This document shows positions 31,045 through 42,670 of a stretch of DNA of 64,000 nt, one piece after another. Source of the DNA: an uncultured Spirochaetota bacterium (GTDB taxonomy: Bacteria > Spirochaetota > Brevinematia > Brevinematales > JAOACQ01); NCBI GenBank assembly GCA_963835575.1, contig CAWIGG010000005.1, positions 128,001-192,000 of the forward strand, given 5' to 3'. Every line of letters begins with the position of its first letter. The stretch's first letter is position 1. The notes beneath the pieces are model-generated. The model saw nothing but the letters and a program-made list of their open reading frames with translations, was not told the origin of the DNA and searched no databases. A program made the position numbers and the translations under genes.

Positions 31045-32017
31045 GTTGTACATCATGCGGCCACACTTTAAGTTAAAAAAAGGAGTAAAAATGTTAATTG
31101 ATAATTGGCTTAAAAACAATTCATCTACTGTTAATTGGAATTTTATTTATAATGATTGGCAAGATATGCAATTATATTACAATTGTTGGCGAGATTTACA
31201 AGTTCATACTATTATTCAATCCGTATTATCACTACCTTTTGATAAAATTAATGTCATTGATTTATGTTGTGGCCCAGGCACTCTATCAAAATCCTTGTTA
31301 GAAAAAGACAGTAGAATTAATATTATTGCCATTGATGCGAATAAATTTTTATTGTCTGTTTATAAAAATATTTTGAAGAATTATAGCAACAGATTTGCAA
31401 TAATTGAATCAGATATAAGAAATCCTGATTTGTATGATAATATTCATGAAGAAATTCATGCAGTAATATCATTAACAGCTCTTCATTGGTTATCCGCAGA
31501 AAATCATAAAAGTTATATGAAAACATTTATAAGCTGCTTGTTAATAAAGGAATATTTTTAAATGGTGATCCTATTAATTTAGAATCTCAGTATTTTAAGA
31601 ATGTTGATTATAAAATAAGTACAGATAAAAATATTGATTGGAACACTTTTTGGAATAACATTTATAATACATATAATCTAAAAAATGAAATTGAAGAAAT
31701 GAATAATCTTCTATCAATTTTTGAAGGATCTGAAGATGGATATTCAAGAGATTTCTATCTTAACTCATTAAAAGAAGCTGGATTTAATGGTTATGAAATT
31801 TTGTTCCTATCCGGGAAAAGATGTGTATATGGCGGCATTAAATGAATGTGGCCGCACAGCGTGCAACTCGGCGTTTGCGCTCTGCTCCTCGGCCTACGAC
31901 CTGTGCGATCGGGTTCGCCCGGCGGTCAGCAGGCCGCAGAAGAAGAACGCCGGGCTCACCAAACCCGCTCGGCAAGAGCGAAGCTCTAAGCCTCGCGGGC
32001 TTCGCAAACGCCTACCG
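31045..32017 (+). mobile_element. Integron-type gene cassette 1
   Basis: Begins GTTGTACATCATGCGGCCACA. After the gene comes TGTGGCCGCACAGCGTGCAAC (reverse complement GTTGCACGCTGTGCGGCCACA), then the attC hairpin. Very low-GC ORF. Confidence 0.75.
31091..31845 (+). CDS. Class I SAM-dependent methyltransferase (cassette gene), frameshifted at ~31510
   Basis: VIDLCCGPG, AIDAN, ISLTALHWL motifs. Adding one A in the cataaaag run continues KLYENIYKLL...GIFLNGD...LKEAGF...YGGIK to TGA 31843-31845. Confidence 0.8.
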
Positions 32018-32652: not shown

Positions 32653-32682
32653 ACCGATTTTGAGGCATGGCATTCAAGAGCG

Positions 32683-34360
32683 GAGTCTGTCGCAAAAGCA
32701 ATAAAACGAATCAGCAATGTCCTATTGAAAATGGCTTTTTTAAAATTTTATAACTTTCTCGGGTAATATGATCACTCAGTCCGGATTTTTTACTATTTTC
32801 AGTCCCCTAATCCTACAATTTAATCCCCAAAGCCGCCATTTTCCTGAAATTGTACGCAATGCAGACCATATGCCAGATAGTGTTTACACTATCCAGACCG
32901 CGGTAGTAAAACCTTCCGAAGTTGAAGTACTCTTTTATCGTCCCGAAAATGTGCTCGATCAGGCAGGCACGCTCATTGTAAGTTCTTTTACCTTCAATAC
33001 TCCTAAGCTTTTCCTTCATCTTGCGCCTTAATTCAACCGTTTCAAAATATTCATACTTTACATTAAACCGTTTGTTTTTTAATGCTTCCAGCTTACCGGC
33101 GCAATTTGAAAGCAGCTTGCACTTCCTGCACAACTCGCGCTTTGGATAGAAACGGTAATTCTTGACTCCCCGATCATTATAAGCTCTTTCCGCGCACATA
33201 ATCTGGCCTCCGGGGCATTTGATTTTCCTGATATTACCGTCAATTATTAATTCACAGTCTTTGGATGTTATTTTATCCTTGTTCTTTCTCTTTTTCGGAC
33301 TTCCGTCTTCTTCTTTTCCTTCGGGGATATAAAGGTCGATCTTTTTATCTTCACCGTATTGGATATTATCCGATGTGAAATATCCGGCGTCCAGCGTGAA
33401 CTTTGTGTCTTCCTTCGGCTCTTCCTGGTGATCCATTACTTCCTCTATCATCGGGACAGCAAGGTTACGGTCGCTTGCGCAGTCTGATACCATCGCGCCG
33501 GTCAGAAATTCATTTTTACTGTCAACGGCGGCCTGGCAATTATACCCGGGGCCGATTGATCCGTTATTCATTTTCATTAACCTGGCGTCTTTGTCTGTCA
33601 GGTTTACGCTTTCCGTTTCGTCTAAATTCCTGTCCTCAACTGTTTTCAGAAATTTATCTATCCCGGATTTCTGCTGTTCAAACTTCTTGAGTTTATTTGC
33701 CATCCTTTTGGAATATTTATCATCGGTATTGCTGTTCACCGTTTCCTGGAGGATTTTTAAGATCTTTTCCTCGATTTTATCCTTTTTATCCCGGAATTCC
33801 TTCGCATTCCCCGTGAAATTCCTGTTGGCCGATGCCTTTATCTTTGTACCGTCTATAGCTTCCAGTTCATAACTGATAAAACCCGATTTCGCCAGAATGT
33901 ATACCATTTTCCCGAAAATACTAACGATTTCATCCAGGTATTTATTGATAAATCTACAGATATTACTGTGGTCAACGGTGGTATTTCCCGCGAGATAAAT
34001 CGTGTTCAGGTCGTTTTTCATCCTTTTTTCTATTTTACGTGAAGTGTAAATACCGGACGCGAAGCTGTAAAACAGGACTTTCAGCATCATTGTAGGGTTG
34101 ACCGCTTTTGCTCCCGTTGTTTGATTCCGCAGTTTAACGGCAAATTCAGCGGGGGAAATATAGCTCTCAACATAATCGTCAATGACTTTGACCAGCAGAT
34201 TGTTTTCCCTGATTTTGTCGGGATCGACGGTCAGCCAGTAGATTTGATCGCGAATATATTTTTTGAATTTCCCCAGCATTTGACACCTCTTAAATATGGT
34301 TTTATTATATTCTATCGTAAGTTATGAAAAATGTACATGAAGAGCTTTTGCGACAGACTC
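32683..34360 (-). mobile_element. IS1182-like insertion sequence #2, inserted in the cassette-2 attC
   Basis: Perfect 17-bp TIRs gagtctgtcgcaaaagc / gcttttgcgacagactc; 4-bp duplication AGCG (32679-32682, 34361-34364). Confidence 0.9.
32813..34279 (-). CDS. IS1182-family DDE transposase
   Basis: MMLKVLFY, SRKIE, DHSNICRF, IDGTKIKASA, TDKDAR, GYNCQAAVD, LDAGY, IEHIFGTIK motifs. Confidence 0.9.
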   Translation of the reverse strand: MLGKFKKYIRDQIYWLTVDPDKIRENNLLVKVIDDYVESYISPAEFAVKLRNQTTGAKAVNPTMMLKVLFYSFASGIYTSRKIEKRMKNDLNTIYLAGNTTVDHSNICRFINKYLDEIVSIFGKMVYILAKSGFISYELEAIDGTKIKASANRNFTGNAKEFRDKKDKIEEKILKILQETVNSNTDDKYSKRMANKLKKFEQQKSGIDKFLKTVEDRNLDETESVNLTDKDARLMKMNNGSIGPGYNCQAAVDSKNEFLTGAMVSDCASDRNLAVPMIEEVMDHQEEPKEDTKFTLDAGYFTSDNIQYGEDKKIDLYIPEGKEEDGSPKKRKNKDKITSKDCELIIDGNIRKIKCPGGQIMCAERAYNDRGVKNYRFYPKRELCRKCKLLSNCAGKLEALKNKRFNVKYEYFETVELRRKMKEKLRSIEGKRTYNERACLIEHIFGTIKEYFNFGRFYYRGLDSVNTIWHMVCIAYNFRKMAALGIKL

Positions 34361-34511
34361 AGCGGTTCAGTTCCCCGTATTAACCCAATTACTAATAATT
34401 ACTTTTTAATCCTCATTTAATTGTTTCATTTCAATAGAGTTAATATAATTGCAGAAAAACTCTATTTTAATTTCTTTTTTTTAACAGTCGTAGCCTAATA
34501 CCTCATTCCTC

Positions 34512-34612
34512 TTCTGTGAAATCTGTGTAATCTGTGGTTACATTACCCCTTGATCTTCTCAAATCTCAATACCCTCCGTGCCCTCCGTCTCTCTCAGTGC
34601 TCCCTGTGTTAA
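34512..34612. repeat. Right arms of periodic repeats (C', B')
   Basis: ttctgtgaaatctgtgtaatctgtggtt 34512-34539 and ccctccgtgccctccgtctctctcagtgctccctgtgttaa 34572-34612, inverted relative to the C/B-type arms at 30580-30736. Confidence 0.65.
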
Positions 34613-34744
34613 ACTCCCGTAGGCGACTCCCAAAAGACAGGCTCCTGGTTTACTCAAATATTTCTTTTCTAACAATCCCTTCCCGTCTTGTAAGCTATAT
34701 TTTGGAGAAAAAGTTTACAAAAAATAATTCTTCAGTAGAATACC

Positions 34745-34915
34745 TCCTTGTGGAAGTTGTTGCTCACTACCCGCCTGCCTTCTGGTTTGAAACCAAGGCA
34801 CACAGGAAGATTGCCAACTCCACAAGGACCGTTTTGGTCTCTTAAAACAATTGCCAGGATATTCCCTTGAATAATCCTGTCGCTCATTACAAGGGTGCCG
34901 AAATGGAACGGTCTG
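34745..34915 (+). ncRNA. Predicted IS110 bridge RNA
   Basis: Two stem-internal loop-stem modules. Module 1: ccttgtgga.gttg/caactccacaagg enclosing cccgcct and acaggaaga. Module 2: gaccgtt/aacggtc enclosing taaaacaat and ttacaag. Upstream TTTACA-16-TAGAAT promoter (34714-34741). Confidence 0.75.
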
Positions 34916-34931
34916 ATATTTTAATCTGCTG

Positions 34932-36606
34932 TTGCCTGTCGGTTTTTATAACATGCTTCATGGACATACGGCAGGGTTCCCGTTAAAATAAAACGGGAGA
35001 AAAAGATGGCAAGATTTGAAAAGAACAGCCTGGAGCAGGGTGAGTTCCTCGCGATCAATATAGGCGAGCAGTTTGATGAGAATTCCAGAGAATTTATACT
35101 AAAAGAATTCATCAAAAACCGTATTAAACTGGAGGATTTCGCGGCTTACTATAAGAACGACCATAGAGGCAGAGAGATTAAAAATCCTCGGGATGTGATC
35201 TGTGCGGTACTCTACGGTTACATTACGGGAAATCGTATCAGCCGAAAGATAGAAGATTTGCTGAAAAAACACATTGGGTTTATGTATGTTTCAAACCGGC
35301 TGAAAATTGACCATTCGGTAATTTGCGAGTTCAAGGTACTTTTTCAGGAAAAGATCGAGGAGTTGTTCAGCCAGCTTTTATATATACTCAACGAAATGGG
35401 GTCTATAGATTGGGACATGGTAGTGGGTGACGGCACAAAGATCAAGGCCTACGCGAGTAAGAATAAGAATGTGGGAAAGAAACATACCCGGAAGCTGATG
35501 GACACTTACCAGAAGATGGCGGAAAAGATTGTGAAACAAGACCTGGAACTGGAAGAATCTTACCGGGAAGGCAAGCTGGAGCAGCCTTATTACGAAGCGG
35601 AGAAGAAGCGGGTATCAAGGCGGAAAAAGATTTACGATAGTGTTTTGAACCAAATCGATGAATACAAAAAACAGGTAGAGAGAGGGGAAAAGACAGACGA
35701 AGAATTCACCAACCTGACTGATCCCGAAAGCAAGCTGATGTCTGGAAATCCGCATAGTGTGTTTATACAGGGATATAATTCGGCGATGATGGTCAGTAAT
35801 AATGATGTGATTATAGATTTTGAAGCAATCACAACACCGGAAAAACAGCATACGGAAGAAATGGTAAAGAGGGTGGAACAGAAAAAAGCGGAATTAAAAG
35901 TTGATAAGGCTAGCAAATACCTTTTTGATTCGGGTTTTCAGGACATGGAAGAGACAATCCGGATGGTGGAGGAAGGAAAAGACCTTTATGTGGATACGAA
36001 AGAGCGGGATTTCAGTGATAAATCACAGAAGCGAAGAGACTTTAAACTGGAAAAGATTGATGACGAATATATCCTGGGATGCCGGGGCGGCCGTAAGGAA
36101 AATGGGTATTTAGATCGAAATAACCAAAGATATACATTTTTGTATTCACGGAAGGGCTGTGAAAGATGTCCATTTTTCAGTGAGTGTTATAAAAACATCA
36201 AACCGAAAACACAGCAAAAGACAGTAATTTTCAGTGAGTTTGAATTGAATAATCGGTCTAAGATTGATGCTTATTTAACAAAACTTTACAGCGAAGAAGG
36301 GCAAAAGATATACAACCGCAGGATAGGTAAAGAACACGTATTTTCAAACATCAAAACACAGAAGGGTTATGTTCAGACAGTTTACAGAGGTCAACGGAAA
36401 GTGAATTTGGAGCTATGCTGGGTATCCCTTGCGCATAATTTTATGAAATATGCCCAATATTTGAGAAAATAGAGAGGATTTTGTATAGTCTGAGTATCGA
36501 TTATTCGAAATTTATTATTAAAATCAGCTAAGCTGACAAAATTTTTATTTGCCCGCTTATTGTAAGGGGCTGGTTTGACTCCGAAAATGAAATAACCGAC
36601 AGGCAA
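34932..36606 (+). mobile_element. IS1182-like insertion sequence #3, nested in the IS110
   Basis: TIRs ttgcctgtcggtt / aaccgacaggcaa; 4-bp duplication GCTG (34928-34931, 36607-36610). Confidence 0.85.
35006..36472 (+). CDS. Divergent IS1182-like DDE transposase
   Basis: LYGYITG...SRKIE, DHSVICEF, DGTKIKAYAS, NLTDPES, QGYN, FDSGF, EHVFSNIK, LAHN motifs. Confidence 0.85.
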   Translation: MARFEKNSLEQGEFLAINIGEQFDENSREFILKEFIKNRIKLEDFAAYYKNDHRGREIKNPRDVICAVLYGYITGNRISRKIEDLLKKHIGFMYVSNRLKIDHSVICEFKVLFQEKIEELFSQLLYILNEMGSIDWDMVVGDGTKIKAYASKNKNVGKKHTRKLMDTYQKMAEKIVKQDLELEESYREGKLEQPYYEAEKKRVSRRKKIYDSVLNQIDEYKKQVERGEKTDEEFTNLTDPESKLMSGNPHSVFIQGYNSAMMVSNNDVIIDFEAITTPEKQHTEEMVKRVEQKKAELKVDKASKYLFDSGFQDMEETIRMVEEGKDLYVDTKERDFSDKSQKRRDFKLEKIDDEYILGCRGGRKENGYLDRNNQRYTFLYSRKGCERCPFFSECYKNIKPKTQQKTVIFSEFELNNRSKIDAYLTKLYSEEGQKIYNRRIGKEHVFSNIKTQKGYVQTVYRGQRKVNLELCWVSLAHNFMKYAQYLRK

Positions 36607-36619
36607 GCTGGAGGAAAAA

Positions 36620-37894
36620 ATGCTAATCCGGGATGCTATCGGGATTGATCCCGATTCACAACAGTATGTGTGTATGTATGTCAAAGCGGAAGACTGGAAA
36701 ACGGAACGGAAAGCCTTTCCGGTTACCACAAGCGGCCTTGATAATCTGATCGAATGGACTCGGTCGAAAAATGACCCGATTATCGCCATCGAGGGAAGCA
36801 ACGGGCAGAGTAAGCCCTTAGAGAAAGTGCTTCGTAAGGAATCGATGACCTATTACTCGTTTAAAGCAAGGGATGTTGAACAAAAGAGGAAAAGCCAGCT
36901 CCCGGCGGGAAAGAACAACGAAAAGGATGCTCATGCCGCCGCTCTTTTGGCTTTAGAGCGTGAAATGAACGGTTCTCTGGAAAAATGGAGAAGGGTCTAT
37001 CCTGTTGACAGCGAATTACAGACGATAACCCGGAAATATGAAAGTGTAAGCGGCAGGATCACAGAGGAAATATCCGGGCTGTGGAAGCTTTTATGCGAGG
37101 CTTCCCCGGATGTTTACCTGTTCTTAAGCGGCAAGAATATGGAGACGGATAACAGACGTAATGTTTTGAATAGCGCAGGAGTACTGAATTTGCTGTGTAA
37201 TTGTCCCGATTTAAGCCAATGGAGGAGATTAAGCGCGGAGAAAATGAAAGAGCTGATGGGTGGAGGCTCTTATAGAGGCCGGGATAAGACCATCGCCGGC
37301 TTACAGGTAATAGCCCAAAGAATCTTGGGTGTAGCGGGCCCCATTTCCATGATGATCCGGCAATCTGCTGAAAATATTATTCTTTTGAAAGGCCATAAGG
37401 AAGAAATGAAGAAGATTTTGGATAATCTGGCTGAATCCAGGGAAGCTGTCCGGGTTTTAGCCTATGACGAATCCAATGGCAATGGGTTGAAAGGAATCGG
37501 CGTGATCACTGCCTCTACGATGATAGCCGAGATTATTCATATCAATCGTTTTGTTAAAGAGGACAGCCTGGCGTTATATGCGGGATTCGGTATGGTGGAA
37601 GATGAAACCGGAAAGAAAAATAGGGGTGAAAGAAAGAAGATGAAACATACTCACGATTATAACCGCCGTTTGAAAAACGCCTTTATGAACGCGGCCAAGA
37701 ACTTTGTTCACTGGAATCCGGACCACCATATTTCCGGCATGCACAGGAATTTGATAAAAAATGGAATGAGCAGGCTCGAAGCGAATAAAAGGGTTGCCAG
37801 AGCATTAGTCCGTAAGATATTTCGGATATTAAAGGACTATGAGTCTGAAAATATAAGGAAAATGGAAGAAAACGGGGTGGCAAAAGTGGGTTAG
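36620..37894 (+). CDS. IS110-family recombinase/transposase
   Basis: N-terminal IGID...IAIEG...KNNEKDA RuvC-like domain; C-terminal LKGIGVITA..IAEI..INRF....LALYAG...NRRLKNA...VARALVR Transposase_20-like domain; GGAGG RBS. Confidence 0.85.
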   Translation: MLIRDAIGIDPDSQQYVCMYVKAEDWKTERKAFPVTTSGLDNLIEWTRSKNDPIIAIEGSNGQSKPLEKVLRKESMTYYSFKARDVEQKRKSQLPAGKNNEKDAHAAALLALEREMNGSLEKWRRVYPVDSELQTITRKYESVSGRITEEISGLWKLLCEASPDVYLFLSGKNMETDNRRNVLNSAGVLNLLCNCPDLSQWRRLSAEKMKELMGGGSYRGRDKTIAGLQVIAQRILGVAGPISMMIRQSAENIILLKGHKEEMKKILDNLAESREAVRVLAYDESNGNGLKGIGVITASTMIAEIIHINRFVKEDSLALYAGFGMVEDETGKKNRGERKKMKHTHDYNRRLKNAFMNAAKNFVHWNPDHHISGMHRNLIKNGMSRLEANKRVARALVRKIFRILKDYESENIRKMEENGVAKVG

Positions 37895-38034
37895 AAACCC
37901 TGCGGAAATATTCCGCGAGCAACACCTCCATTTTCTTCCGCCTTTATTATATCGAACTACTGAGGTTTTTTAAATATTTTGATCGTTTTTTTCTTGACTT
38001 AACTAAAACAATCTTCCTGTTAATTTACCCCCCA

Positions 38035-38063
38035 ATTCGCGTCCATTAGCGTGCATTCGCGGA
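38035..38063. repeat. Right arm A' of the 10-bp-period repeat
   Basis: attcgcgtccattagcgtgcattcgcgga matches the reverse complement of arm A (30531-30559) at 22/29. Confidence 0.7.
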
Positions 38064-38093
38064 TTATCCATCGGTCTCCCGCGAATACACAAT

Positions 38094-38124
38094 AAAAAAA
38101 CCCGGCAAATAATTGCCGGGTTTT
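38094..38124. terminator. Intrinsic terminator of the kinase/vWA operon
   Basis: aaaaaaacccggcaa-ataa-ttgccgggtttt. Confidence 0.75.
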
Positions 38125-38140
38125 ATTCTGTTATACCATT

Positions 38141-39559
38141 TTATTTCTTCTTCTTAATCTCCCCTTCATCGAACACGATCGTGGCGCCGCCGACATTCAG
38201 AACATCGCCGGATTCCAGTATTTTTGTCTTGACGGGCTTGTTGTTGACCATCACATCTTCCTTGCTCTTAAGCGTGTAGACCTGGGTCTTGCCGTCGAAT
38301 ATGATCGTCGCATGCTCGTCTTTGACGGACGGCGCGTTCATAATGGTCAGGTCCGCGTTTTTAGACCCTCCGATGATCGTCTGGCCCTTATTTAGTAACA
38401 GCGACTTGCTGATAATCGTTCCCTTCGGCGCGTCCAGAACTTCCAGCATGGGTTTTGTATTCGTATTCTTAAATTTAATGAGCGACAACAGCCATAATAA
38501 TAGAAGGGCAAGAAGAAGCGCCAGAAGAAGCCAGAGGGTAAATTCCTTTAAAGGCATGCCGAAGAGGACGCTCGAAAAATAATACCGGGTCGAGCTTACC
38601 TTGCTGTTATCACCTGCTGTCATATCCACTTTTACATATTTTTTGAGCGCGGGCTCCATTCCTGCCTTATAGGTGATCATAAACTCATTCAGGATCTGCT
38701 CTTTGATCCTGATATAAATATTCTTCAGTTCTTCCTCGTTTTTAGCGTCAAACACCACGCCGCCCGTGTTCTGTGAGATTGTTTTCAGACCAGTGTCCTT
38801 TTTATCGTTGCCGTAGTTTATAACAAATACCGACACGCCTTCCATCAGGCTTTTTTCAATAGCTTCCTGGTATTTAAAAATCTTTGTGCCGAAATCCTTG
38901 TGCGGCTTTTTGACATATTCATAATAGGGCATATTCTCGCCATCGGAAAGAATGATGACGGCTTTTCTGCCCGACACCTGTTTGAAATCTTCCATGGCCA
39001 GATACAGGCTTGAATAAATTTCAGTCCATGCTTCCTCGCTGGACGGTTTCTTGATCTCATTCAGGTAATTCGCGATCTTATTTTTATCATTAATGGGCAT
39101 TGAATAAATAGTATAAAATGAATTAAAGGAAGCGATCCCGACCGTGTCCCTCTGGTTTTTTATGCTCTGAAGAAAATTGACAATGGCTTTTTTCGCGCTG
39201 GAGATCCGCATATTATCCTCATCCGGGGTTTCCCTTCCGTTAAAATCATCATACATACTGCCGGAATTATCCAGAAGCAGAAGAAAATTAATACCGTTTT
39301 CATAATTCGCTTCCGGCTTGAAGTTCAATATTTTAACCGGTTTGAAATTCTTCTGGTCGGCGGATTCAGATACATTAAACCTGTTCTGCTCGATGTTTTT
39401 TACAGGATTACCCTTATTGTCCAGAACGCTGATGTATAAATTAATTTTCTGATTAAGCAGTAGACGGGAATTATCAATCTGCGAGATATTGACAGAATCG
39501 CCGAACACCCATTGAAAGACAAGAAATGATAAGACTATCAAAATAGATTTTTTAAACAT
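38141..39559 (-). CDS. Exported vWA-domain protein with TM helix and C-terminal FHA-like domain
   Basis: Signal peptide; MIDAS motif DNSGS...T...ILSDG; TM LWLLLALLLALLLLWLL; FHA-like IIGG..NADL.I....V...HA.I...VNN.PV....LESGDVL.VG. Confidence 0.85.
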   Translation of the reverse strand: MFKKSILIVLSFLVFQWVFGDSVNISQIDNSRLLLNQKINLYISVLDNKGNPVKNIEQNRFNVSESADQKNFKPVKILNFKPEANYENGINFLLLLDNSGSMYDDFNGRETPDEDNMRISSAKKAIVNFLQSIKNQRDTVGIASFNSFYTIYSMPINDKNKIANYLNEIKKPSSEEAWTEIYSSLYLAMEDFKQVSGRKAVIILSDGENMPYYEYVKKPHKDFGTKIFKYQEAIEKSLMEGVSVFVINYGNDKKDTGLKTISQNTGGVVFDAKNEEELKNIYIRIKEQILNEFMITYKAGMEPALKKYVKVDMTAGDNSKVSSTRYYFSSVLFGMPLKEFTLWLLLALLLALLLLWLLSLIKFKNTNTKPMLEVLDAPKGTIISKSLLLNKGQTIIGGSKNADLTIMNAPSVKDEHATIIFDGKTQVYTLKSKEDVMVNNKPVKTKILESGDVLNVGGATIVFDEGEIKKKK

Positions 39560-39631
39560 AATTTACTCCTTTTCCGTCAAAGTCCGCCGGCAGCGCTTTA
39601 CGCCGCATGCGTCTCTGTATGGAATATATTT

Positions 39632-40522
39632 TTAACTATACTTGAATAAAAACTTCGCGCTGCCGATCTGTATGACATCATCAAGCTGCAGTTCTTTCTG
39701 CTCGGCAGCATCATCATTAACTTTGATCCTGCCGTTCTTCGCCTTGTTTTTAATGCTGACATTTATCCCTTTGGCTATCACTTCGGCATGATAAGATTCA
39801 ATGTCTTCATAATCCGAAAGCCTGATGTCGCTCCAGCCGGAAGTCCCGATCCTTATCTTTCTCTGATTGATCAGGAATTCCTTCCCTTTATACTTACCGT
39901 TCAATAACCTGAGGACCCCGAAAGAAAACGAGCTTTCGATAATTCCGTAAAAAAAGCCTATCATCAGCCCGAATACCAGGAACCCGATCAGCCTGGCGAT
40001 CAGGAGATTATTGATCATGAGGGGGAGATACTCTACGGCCAGCCCTCCTATGATGCCGCCGATAAGACCGCCCAGAAAACCGACCTTCATTTTATTAAAT
40101 GAAAGCGAGCGGAAGCCTTCCGTCATGCCGATAAAAATCCCCAGTATGGCCCAGCCCCCGGCCCGCGTCAGAGGCACGGCGATCTTATTAATGCTGGAAA
40201 CGGAATGAAGCAGTTTATCCCCGACTATGAATAACGCCGCCTGCCCGGCTAAAAAACCGGCGGCTCCGCCGATAACGCCTACAATAGCGCCGGTAATGAC
40301 GCCTTTCAATATTTTGCCGCTATCCGCCAGAATAATGCCTTCGCTGGAGCCGAAAAAACCGCACATAAAAATTCCGACAATGACTCCCAGGGTTATGCTG
40401 AAAATTAAATAGGAAGGAAATTTTGCCTGAAATATGATGATTGATTCCACCATGGCCCACGAAGCGAGCCCGCCGAGAAGTCCGATAATTGAAAGAAAAA
40501 CCCTTTTCATTAATGTTGACAT
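39632..40522 (-). CDS. Gly-rich multi-TM membrane protein with C-terminal FHA-like domain
   Basis: About six Gly-rich TM helices, then LRLLNG...GKEF.I...IRIG...DIRL...HAEV...VND......LQLDDVIQIG. Confidence 0.8.
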   Translation of the reverse strand: MSTLMKRVFLSIIGLLGGLASWAMVESIIIFQAKFPSYLIFSITLGVIVGIFMCGFFGSSEGIILADSGKILKGVITGAIVGVIGGAAGFLAGQAALFIVGDKLLHSVSSINKIAVPLTRAGGWAILGIFIGMTEGFRSLSFNKMKVGFLGGLIGGIIGGLAVEYLPLMINNLLIARLIGFLVFGLMIGFFYGIIESSFSFGVLRLLNGKYKGKEFLINQRKIRIGTSGWSDIRLSDYEDIESYHAEVIAKGINVSIKNKAKNGRIKVNDDAAEQKELQLDDVIQIGSAKFLFKYS

Positions 40523-40547
40523 ATTCTCACTCCTTCTAAATTATTAA

Positions 40548-40761
40548 GGGCAGTTTCAGAACTGCCGCCTTTGTTTTTAATCATGCTGCCCCTCACCATT
40601 TTGTGAACTCCAGCGGTGCAGCCCCAGCAAAATGGTGAGGGGCAGCGTCGTTTTTATTAACCAAAAAGCTTTTTATATCCGGGGCAGTTTCCAATCCCCG
40701 CGTCAGTTTATTTGCTTCTCAGATGCCGATATATAGACTCGTGCAGGATTGGAACTGCACC
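40548..40761. mobile_element. MITE-like element (gggcagtt... family), copy 2, containing hairpin module copy 4 (40585-40646)
   Basis: gggcagtt..agaactgccgc...tcatgct[hairpin]agcg...ccggggcagtt.cca...tggaactgcacc, the same order as 20229-20432. Confidence 0.65.
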
Positions 40762-42670
40762 TTATTTAATCCTTAAGTTAATTTGATCGTTTTTGACATC
40801 ATAATCCACATAAACATTTTTATAACCGTCGGGCGTAATATTGATCGATTCCGATTTTGTCTTTTCACCTTTCTTAATAGTTAAAGTATAGTGTCTGGAA
40901 GCAAGCAGATATTTCTGGCCGCTCTGTGTTGTCGTATTAATTTTAACATACTTTTTATCTTCCCCGCCGGTGTAACAATAGGCATGGTCGTCCAGAAACA
41001 CTTCCAGCCCGTCATAATTTGACTTGATAAAGAGCGTTCCCGCTTTCGGGACAAGATACACATTGATTTTCACTACCGTTTCATAATGACCCACCGGTAT
41101 TGTGATTTTTTTAGGGAGATACCCTTTTTTTTCAAATTTAAAGTAATACTTCTTGCTGTTGACAAGCATGTTTTTCAACCTGCTTTTGAAAATCGCCCAC
41201 TTGATCCATCCGTAATTACCAAACACGGAAATATTCACATCATCCAGCTGGGTTTCAACGTCCCTGTCATAAATATTGAACCGGATGTCCATGGGCAGCA
41301 AGGGAGGCGCGGAACGGCTGATTTCTATTTCATCAGCCTTTGACGGGAATTTATAAGATTCCTGTACGGCGACAGGCTCTACAAATATTTCCCTGTAATA
41401 CTTTTCATTTTCGGCTGTCAAATCGAACCTGTATTCCCTGGACGGCAGATAAATTTCATCCGACCTGTATACATTAATATTACCTTTGGTCTTAACAGCA
41501 TTATTCAGGCGGCAGATGACTTTCGCGTATTCGGAATAATTATCATTTTTATTTTTATAAGACAGAGTCCCTGTCATATAATCTTTATCGCCGGTCATAT
41601 AAGCCTTATCCGCTTTTACAGTGATCCTTATTTTTCCATAGCTGTCTCTTGCAAAAAGGTCATAATAGAGGCCTTTATAATAAAGTAAATTGAATGCTCC
41701 GGCCAGAATTAATAAGCTGAAAGCTGTTTTTAAAACAAAAGTCCCGATATTAAAATACTTAACTTTCGGGAGGCTTTTAACTTTCTGAGTATATTCGTCG
41801 CCGAAAACATAATTCCTGATGGCGTCGTTAATTTTCTGCTGTGTTTTGAATTTTCTGAGATACGGCCCCAATTTCGCTATGACAACGCCCAGATCGTTAT
41901 AGCGGTTTTTCGCCCTGTGATGCATCATCTTCCTGATGATGGACTGGACCCTCGACGGGACATGCGGATTGATCTTGCGGGGCTTTTTATACTTGCCCTT
42001 CTCTATAAGCGATATTGTTTTGGCGGCCATATCGGACGAAAAAGGCAGCTTGCCTGTCGTCATGAAAATAGAACAAAACCCCCATTGAAAAAATATCCGC
42101 CCTTTTATCCACATTCTTGCTGTCCGCGATCTGCTCAGGCGCCATGTAGGAAGGGGTACCAAGGGTCGTGCCTTTCTGGGTCAAACCCGTTTCCGTATCA
42201 TCCTCGGATTTAGCGATGCCAAAGTCGGTCAGTTTGACTTCCCCTTCTTTTGAGATGAGTATATTCGCCGGCTTGATATCCCTGTGGATAACGCCCTTGT
42301 CATGAGCGTATTTCAAACCCTTGCATACCTCTAATAAAATGAGTACCGCGGCCTCGTTTGACAGATGCCTTTTCAATTGAATAAGCTTGTCCAGGCTTAT
42401 TCCGTCGATATATTCCAGGACTATATAATATGATCCGCCCTCCCTGAAATGATCATAAACCTGCACTATATTCTCGCTTCTGAAGTTGAACATAATTTTG
42501 GCTTCTCTTTTAAACCTTTCAACAACCCCTTCTATTCCCTTGAGATTGAGCTGTTTGAGGATTATAAAGCTTTCCAGCGTGGGGTGTTTTGCTTTATAGA
42601 CAGTTCCCATTCCGCCCGAAGCGATTTTTTCTATGACAAGATATTTACCAACTTTTTCCATCATGTCCAT
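40762..42670 (-). CDS. Hanks-type Ser/Thr protein kinase with TM and extracytoplasmic (PEGA-like) region, frameshifted at ~42066
   Basis: GGMGTVYKA, HRDIKPAN, DFG, GTPSYMAPE, DIFSMG motifs. Removing one T restores LFYFMTTGKLPF, joining ORF 40762-42162. Confidence 0.85.

Follow-up and report, generated by a model that had tools for sequence, protein, structure and literature searches.

A divergent IS110-group element with a candidate bridge RNA and an Asn/Thr active site in an uncultured Spirochaetota bacterium

The core mechanism by which bridge RNAs guide recombinases of the IS110 family has been known since 2024, and the closest described systems for the element considered here are IS621 and ISCro4 (IS622) (PMC11208160, PMC11208158; PDB 8wt6-9, 9t56; statements on published work are limited, here and below, to the passages of each source that were accessible). 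In IS621, the loop bearing S241 is held steady by D102 by way of G242, and D102 does not figure among the listed metal ligands (PMC11208160, PMC11208158).

Here we analyse an IS110-group element in a 64,000-nt stretch of DNA from an uncultured Spirochaetota bacterium (contig CAWIGG010000005.1 of assembly GCA_963835575.1, positions 128,001 to 192,000; hereafter the window, whose numbering is used throughout). With a probability that we put at about 0.88, it is an active element working like IS621, in which an RNA guides the pairing of a repeat target with the element's own joined ends and strands are exchanged at a CT core. Direct support comes from the CT boundaries, six near-identical copies, a conserved two-module fold, and covariation of the guides with both target and donor. 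A preliminary description, made from the letters of the window, had already proposed an RNA-guided IS110 element; the copies, the target and the covariation bear that interpretation out, but it saw a composite as one element, misread a handshake base and overlooked the departure of the active site from that of IS621.

Boundaries, copies and target sites

The IS110 element proper is 1649 bp long, counting both CT dinucleotides, and in the window it is interrupted by a separate, IS1182-like element of 1675 bp (Table 1). Six loci in the genome have its left and right ends in common: four carry the simple 1649-bp form, and two, the window and C2:1642913, carry a composite of 3328 bp (both CT counted), the difference being the 1675-bp passenger and a 4-bp duplication. 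The six IS110 copies are near-identical, with four variable positions in all, and they stand at different loci with unlike wider flanks; the expectation that other copies would have the same boundaries was thus borne out by the five further ones. The single IS110 element formerly drawn from 34687 to 38020 does not correspond to what the copies delimit. The nested element had gone unmentioned, and IS110 stops at the CT at 38013-38014, the remaining six bases being host DNA of the target flank. In the simple copies the left end is ~250 nt and the right end ~120 nt long, with the bridge RNA upstream of the recombinase gene, while the span in the window holds two genes, one for a DDE transposase and one for the IS110 recombinase. 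By eye, no long sub-terminal inverted repeats were seen at the IS110 ends, an architecture of the IS110 group as opposed to the IS1111 group.

As in other members of the family, the dinucleotide core is shared and there is no further target duplication. When rejoined, the six sites give a 15-mer that stands unoccupied at 18 places in the genome, mostly inside repeat arrays with an 8-nt period. All six insertions lie between TTCC(C/T)G(T/C), CT and TCCTGT, and the target inferred earlier fits every one of them, with a single C-to-T change in one site. The search for empty sites that had been proposed yielded, besides the 18 15-mers, a near-empty allele: a contig of run X2 (from another study, depth 3.1, with 11 other differences) crosses the window locus without IS110 and has one extra 8-nt repeat unit. 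A second X2 contig, of 1666 nt, holds IS110 without the passenger, again adjoining a repeat of like kind. At target position 7, T and C occur in a ratio of 4:2 at occupied and 13:5 at empty sites, and the position hence seems barely read.

Short tandem low-complexity repeats of several types cluster around the insertion (34500-34690 and 38030-38065) and around the other copies, and in two relatives (L001, L086) the guides are aimed at another repeat type of the same low-complexity family. A truncated relative at G000:C2:1329629-1330118, with 82% amino acid identity over residues 303-422 and the same right end, has a CTCTGTG-type flank like those of L001; it resembles what is left of a sister element that targeted a different repeat.

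Further searches gave no second full-length homologue of the recombinase in the assembly (tblastn, E <= 1e-3; a very distant IS110 could escape), no copy of the joined donor sequence anywhere in the assembly, and nothing above any Rfam gathering score in 34500-38300. The end-to-end (circle) joint is absent from the contigs of runs X1-X4; contigs lose rare forms, and this result is hence uninformative either way. Among the sequencing runs listed as holding the sequence, none is an RNA run, which carries no information on expression.

The candidate left-end RNA, its guides and its predicted promoters

The left end folds with a z-score of -4.72, and 0/200 shuffles were as stable; an alignment fold of 49 sequences has 31 consensus pairs, 17 of them with two-sided change. 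Single-sequence and alignment folds agree on the two stem/internal-loop modules that had been described, the inner stem of the target loop appearing in single-sequence folds only. Part of the guides is paired in the single-sequence fold, with mean unpaired probabilities of 0.49 for the left target guide, 0.35 for the right target guide, 0.55 for the right donor guide and 0.85 for the left donor guide; open guide loops emerge from the alignment fold, not from the single-sequence one.

The guide motifs, CT cores and promoter-like sites quoted in the preliminary description all lie where it placed them, and two guides had to be redrawn. The motif cccgcct (34770-34776), a 6/7 match to the left target, is present, but the guide to which it belongs is 9 nt long (34768-34776) and matches the window site at 7/9. 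The motif acaggaaga, taken as the right target guide, does match as a reverse complement, over 12 nt (34802-34813), but its last base pairs with donor base 38012 and is part of a handshake. The ninth "target" base of that reading arose because the right target guide is followed by two bases that correspond to the post-exchange handshake, which in IS621 pairs such bases (PMC11208158). In 41/50 homologues these two bases are AT facing donor AT. Immediately after the left donor guide comes TG instead of the core CT.

Chance matches were gauged in 20000 dinucleotide shuffles of 34745-34915, with motifs that had been picked after the fact. By itself, the 6/7 left-target match recurred in 4160 shuffles (21%) and is weak alone. 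The other three guide matches recurred in 44, 37 and 174 shuffles, and at least three matches together in none.

Relatives of the element allow each guide to be set against its own flank. A scan of genome contigs gave only one relative, the nearest genome relative stands at 59% identity, and a search of the phylum found relatives in 5 of 401 genomes (own included), scoring 4 of the 6 own copies. The homologue set comprised 91 loci, with the RNA parsed in 71 and 65 kept after own copies and identical target loops had been dropped. Left ends (49) were located with the right donor guide, by searching for its reverse complement, and right ends (50, of which 47 had enough flank) with a donor motif; the way in which ends were found therefore does not bear on the tests of the target guides, but it does on most donor matches. 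The left guide scored 5.65/7 against its own flank and 3.82 +/- 0.12 when shuffled, with 0/10000 permutations as high (n=49); the right guide scored 3.53/4 against 1.19 +/- 0.15, the highest permutation reaching 1.85 (n=47). By position, the right target guide matches at positions 10-14 in 42, 43, 41, 40 and 40 of the 47 relatives, and at position 15 in 10/47. For the left guide, testing each position in a fixed register suffered from register errors in roughly one row in four, and a register-free test was used instead.

The guides vary widely across the relatives while the RNA scaffold is kept. Donor guides change with their ends as well: in L057 and L061, detected with a pattern independent of the guide, a change in the left donor guide is met by one at the right end, and in L009, L014, L020, L023 and L042 a change in the right donor guide is met by one at the left end; in these five the ends were found by the guide, and the target-guide match corroborates them. 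The covariation on which the earlier proposal had been made to depend is thus seen for the target guides, in 49 and 47 relatives, and as compensation in the donor, and it supports the reading of the left end as a bridge RNA. No clear rule among the homologues connected the donor-loop handshake with target position 7. The left donor guide bases that face donor positions 6-7 vary freely (CA, TA, AA, GA), the donor keeping AT in 46/50, and the perfect 9-nt left donor match of the window is a minority state (4/65).

Circularisation at CT would create a predicted promoter, TTGACT-17-TAAGCT, for which both boxes and the spacing given previously are right (13 nt of the right end, CT and TG). The junction pattern TTG..-17-TA...T occurs in 38/38 homologues with both ends, its TA being fixed by how left ends were located, and TTGAC is in place in 47/50 homologous right ends. 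The second, internal promoter proposed, TTTACA-16-TAGAAT, was also found by a promoter scan (10/12 matches), which gave 3 sites in the region and 0.8 +/- 1.0 in shuffles. This predicted promoter is positionally conserved, in that a -35-like motif recurs at the same offset, -41 to -44, with 33 hits in 49 homologous leaders; the TTTACA of the window is at -42.

About 10 nt upstream of the internal -35, 28/49 homologous leaders (within L003-L090; L014, L022 and L023 are examples) carry the motif TGTGNA(A/T)AA, often as a tandem pair. Dinucleotide-shuffled leaders had it in at most 4/49, and the short-leader subgroup of the window, with L001 and L002, is without it. The motif, which we take to be a reversed DnaA-box consensus, could link transcription of the RNA, or excision, to the control of replication; a title-level literature search returned nothing relevant joining IS110 with a DnaA box.

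The recombinase and the movement of the element

The recombinase has both Pfam domains of the family (PF01548, N-terminal RuvC-like, 49.8 bits against a cut-off of 29; PF02371, C-terminal Tnp, 49.3 against 21.3), and the ribosome-binding site of its gene (36610-36614) is intact. Its predicted structure, with a mean predicted local distance difference test (pLDDT) value of 90.6, finds its best fold matches in IS621 and ISCro4 (E about 1e-10, target template modelling (TM) score 0.73-0.75). Sequence and profile alignments place N100 opposite D102 of IS621 and T330, ungapped, opposite S241. The catalytic tetrad reads D10, E58, N100 and D103 in place of DEDD, and the SG motif with its serine nucleophile is replaced by E-T-G, with no serine in residues 317-371. 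Because the IS621-type tetrad and serine are lacking and the NCBIfam score given below is under its cut-off, and because domains, fold and architecture fit, the element is best filed as a divergent Asn/Thr clade of the IS110 family.

The two substitutions characterise the whole clade. Among the 120 homologues listed of 215, position 100 is N in every one and position 330 holds either T (116) or S (4); D10 and E58 are invariant across a clade of about 45% identity. Among full-length representatives of 50% clusters, 31 clade rows are N/T (29) or N/S (2) and 31 rows of the next tier are D/S (24) or D/T (7); the N/T clade is one side of a branch with a Shimodaira-Hasegawa-like approximate likelihood ratio test (SH-aLRT) value of 100 in a quick, midpoint-rooted tree. 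Asn is a plausible substitute for D102, as that residue positions a loop in IS621 and is no listed metal ligand, and six copies that differ at just four positions argue that the recombinase works.

Expression, RNA-recombinase binding, circle formation and catalysis are carried over from IS621 by analogy. An RNA of ~170 nt would be transcribed either from the integrated element, by the internal promoter, or from the circle, by the junction promoter, and would bind the recombinase. Its target loop would open the repeat TTCC(C/T)G(T/C)-CT-TCCTG and its donor loop the joined ends, after which strands would be cut next to CT, exchanged with the help of the AU handshake, and resolved. Thr330 is probably the nucleophile, cutting through a 5'-phosphothreonine link, with Asn100 in the loop-positioning role of D102. 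Single-strand copy-out, which has been argued for IS621 (bioRxiv 2026.08.31.748434), would fit the build-up of copies here.

Several points weigh against an active, IS621-like element. The protein is divergent, scoring 102.2 bits with NCBIfam NF033542 against a cut-off of 140 (E 3e-29, residues 7-407). IS621 mutants at D102 and S241 are dead (alanine, where the substitution is named; PMC11208160, PMC11208158), and the recent spread of the copies is the sole indication that Asn and Thr are tolerated here. In 86 of the 120 listed homologues a serine stands immediately before position 330 and could serve there. The 9-nt left target guide is mismatched at position 2 in 6/6, position 7 in 4/6 and position 5 in 1/6 of the occupied sites, and no site in the genome matches the RNA perfectly, in contrast to the preference of IS621 for perfect target matches (PMC11208160). 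As for covariation, most donor matches among the homologues hold by construction, the ends having been located with donor motifs, and the permutation tests (10000 re-pairings) ignore the relatedness of the homologues, so that their outcomes are no p-values, and use one flank per RNA.

The passenger sits between the bridge RNA and the ribosome-binding site of the recombinase gene, and the sequence GCTG is duplicated around it (34928-34931 and 36607-36610). We call it IS1182-like because its NF033551 (IS1182) score of 213 bits is below the cut-off of 270. Its 13-bp repeats and the 4-bp duplication are exact in 16/24 copies, and contigs of runs X1 and X2 skip exactly the passenger stretch. Genome-wide, its targets look like imperfect palindromes with a T-rich side, a 4-bp core (often GCTG) and an A-rich side; by eye, five copies (5 of 22 other insertions) lie in one repeated hairpin-like sequence, and several stand just before ribosome-binding sites. 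The passenger interrupts neither the RNA nor the donor halves nor the recombinase frame, and the composite should therefore remain mobilisable, at minimum by the enzyme of the four simple copies.

How the two composites arose is a separate matter, on which we lean slightly towards an origin without any movement of the composite by the bridge recombinase: IS1182 would have hit the same GCTG twice, or its insertion would have been copied between IS110s by homologous exchange. The IS110 haplotypes of the two composites are discordant, differing at positions 37158, 37234 and 37984, with each composite closer to some simple copies than to its fellow composite and the C2 composite equal to the C6 simple copy in its IS110; when 8.77 million positions are scored with a matrix of the other 22 insertions, the site ranks among the best 152. 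Two independent hits, on the other hand, are ~1-5% likely by a rough hand estimate (six copies, hundreds of good sites, 24 insertions), and gene conversion is indistinguishable here from short-read polishing errors. Transposition of the IS110::IS1182 unit as a 3.3-kb circle via the bridge recombinase, giving both composites, is a tentative possibility that falls somewhat short of an even bet. It would explain two copies with the same insertion point, orientation and identical passenger but different flanks and correct CT junctions, and cargo-bearing IS110s are described. The discordant haplotypes count against it, the passenger haplotype is the commonest one (16/24) and hence uninformative, and among the contigs listed none bridges the IS110-IS1182 junctions. 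A literature search by title found nothing specific on IS1182 inside IS110.

A more radical alternative, which we regard as very improbable, retains the guide RNA and takes the recombinase itself to be dead or structural, with Asn and Thr as marks of degeneration and the copies moved in trans by another IS110 enzyme. The need of IS621 for D102 and S241 would suit it, as would the existence of the truncated 82%-identical relative (C2:1329629-1329991), but the DNA of that relative also encodes E-T-G (by eye), and the tblastn search, which could miss a very distant IS110, left the assembly with no other full-length candidate. Fixation of Asn and Thr across a clade of about 45% identity with invariant D10 and E58 likewise speaks against degeneration, and the same pair is present in ISfinder-named elements (Durrant row 583). 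Guide matches arising by chance in a repeat-rich, low-complexity region, with the protein doing the targeting, can be dismissed, since despite the frequency of the 6/7 left match in shuffles and the repeat nature of the target, guides track different flanks in 47-49 relatives and the fold is kept around them, which largely refutes it.

Surroundings, related elements and comparison with IS621

Table 1. Coordinates of the IS110 element, its passenger and the adjoining target in the window
Feature	Position	Strand	Basis
Left target flank, target positions 1-7 (host DNA, part of 8-nt-period repeat)	34680-34686	+	Six sites compared; 18 empty sites
Left CT core, left boundary of IS110	34687-34688	+	Homology of six copies begins here
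Right half of donor; contains -10 (34691-34696) of circularisation promoter	34689-34696	+	Sequence; homologue junction pattern
Internal promoter-like site TTTACA-16-TAGAAT	34714-34741	+	Promoter scan; just upstream of bridge RNA; predicted
Target-binding loop module	34746-34828	+	Folds; alignment fold with compensatory pairs
Left target guide, 9 nt including core	34768-34776	+	IS621 numbering; 7/9 at window site; covaries with flanks in 49 homologues
Right target guide, core and target 10-14, here also 15	34802-34809	+	Perfect at 6/6 sites
Target-loop handshake guide AU, complementary to donor positions 6-7	34810-34811	+	AT vs donor AT in 41/50 homologues
Donor-binding loop module	34829-34914	+	Folds, single-sequence and alignment
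Left donor guide	34843-34851	+	Identical to 38004-38012; L057, L061 change guide and right end together
Right donor guide (34887-34893), then donor-loop handshake guide GG	34887-34895	+	Sequence; compensatory variants L009, L014, L020, L023, L042
Passenger IS1182-like element, 1675 bp, 13-bp perfect terminal inverted repeats	34932-36606	+	24 genome copies; absent from 4/6 IS110 copies
DDE transposase of passenger, 488 aa	35006-36472	+	Pfam DUF772, DDE_Tnp_1_6
IS110 recombinase, 424 aa; D10, E58, N100, D103, T330-G331	36620-37894	+	Pfam; alignment to IS621, ISCro4; model fold
Right end: -35 TTGACT 37994-37999, left donor half 38004-38012, right CT core 38013-38014	37994-38014	+	Six-copy comparison
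Right target flank (host DNA)	38015-38020	+	Same six bases at 6/6 insertions

Near the element, a second, different IS1182 lies at 32682-34361 on the minus strand (NF033551, 307.6 bits, above the cut-off); it has about six further near-full copies, and the copy on C6 is split by a 3.6-kb insert. The ~96-bp repeat at 31909-32006 recurs at numerous loci in copies that are 75-90% alike, and some of these form regular arrays (C7, C2:2031821-2034993, C6); such repeats sit between small methyltransferase genes and look like integron attC sites. A methyltransferase open reading frame at 31046-31800 stops at 31561 while AT-rich coding-like sequence goes on, and is possibly frameshifted. On the minus strand, 38141-42670 holds genes for a vWA/FHA protein and a membrane protein and a Ser/Thr-kinase-like gene apparently split in two frames near 41987-42162.

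The Asn/Thr pair has been recorded in other elements. Siddiquee 2024 gives "SG or TG" for IS1111 transposases, with only SG conserved in the IS110 group (PMC11187229), and on this ground we rejected the notion that Thr at the nucleophile site is unprecedented. The idea that the clade had never been sampled was rejected as well: row 617 of Supplementary Table 1 of Durrant 2024 (PMC11208160) is a Spirochaetota protein, 0ab1e5bbbfdc7fe2a5, without an ISfinder name, that has the same clade motifs including Asn and Thr, its RNA and residues being undiscussed in the accessible passages. The same source holds another lineage with Asn and TG (ISCps8, ISMtsp6, ISSpi3, ISSso6, ISVisp2; row 583 and others). 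Because these ISfinder-named members have the same change, Asn for the third Asp excludes an IS621-type active site, not membership of the IS110 family as ISfinder uses it. Among Durrant rows displayed by motif-chosen searches, 14/15 with Asn at the third Asp had TG (by eye; the exception is row 83); TG also pairs with Asp (row 880), and the association is a lead, not a sample. As the nearest full-length outgroup rows are D/S or D/T and never N, the tree suggests that N/T arose here separately from the ISCps8 lineage, which is not itself on the tree. Unlike that lineage and IS1111 elements with TG, the element has its RNA at the left end and no long sub-terminal repeats. In a title-level literature search, with most subscription papers beyond reach, no discussion of an IS110 threonine nucleophile or of a DEND site was found. 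Cargo-bearing IS110 elements, in which IS110 ends and RNA bound extra DNA, have been described (bioRxiv 10.64898/2026.08.14.744561); the cargo here differs in being one autonomous IS1182-like element between the RNA and the ribosome-binding site.

For an active IS110-group element of this kind, we see a little better than an even chance that the following hold jointly: the whole clade would cut via 5'-phosphothreonine, with Asn for the third Asp coupled to it and arisen more than once in the IS110 family; the RNA would come from an internal promoter beside DnaA-box-like motifs in most members; and this member would have moved IS1182 as cargo. A threonine recombinase chemistry would then stand beside the serine and tyrosine ones, and we know of none that is established. 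The protein offers a clean test case for a threonine nucleophile because it has no serine in its catalytic loop; if confirmed, such chemistry would widen that of recombinases and enlarge the pool of editing scaffolds. The locus also offers a system that is specified in full and about 15% identical to IS621, with rules defined by six insertions found in nature and by some 50 relatives that nature has reprogrammed: exactly positions 10-14 are read by the right target guide, and the reading of position 7 is loose.

Compared with IS621 and ISCro4, the recombinase has the same RuvC-like, coiled-coil and Tnp fold at 14-16% structural identity, and the RNA lies at the left end, with a target loop followed by a donor loop and guides in the order left target, right target, left donor, right donor. 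The CT core, the lack of long terminal repeats, the junction promoter (predicted here) and the repeat-type target are likewise shared. With IS621 in particular, the handshake bases A-U and G agree, the target-loop AU being the same as A81/U82, as does the AT at donor positions 6-7. The differences lie in the protein, which has 424 residues against 326 and an extra helical block, with Asn for D102 and Thr for S241, and in the RNA. In its natural form the right target guide pairs 7 nt, the core included, for which IS621 needed engineering; the right donor guide is contiguous here and discontiguous in IS621; the two modules abut, whereas IS621 has an 11-nt linker between them; and a conserved internal promoter-like site is present here, whereas integrated IS621 is reported to depend on read-through transcription (PMC13626964).

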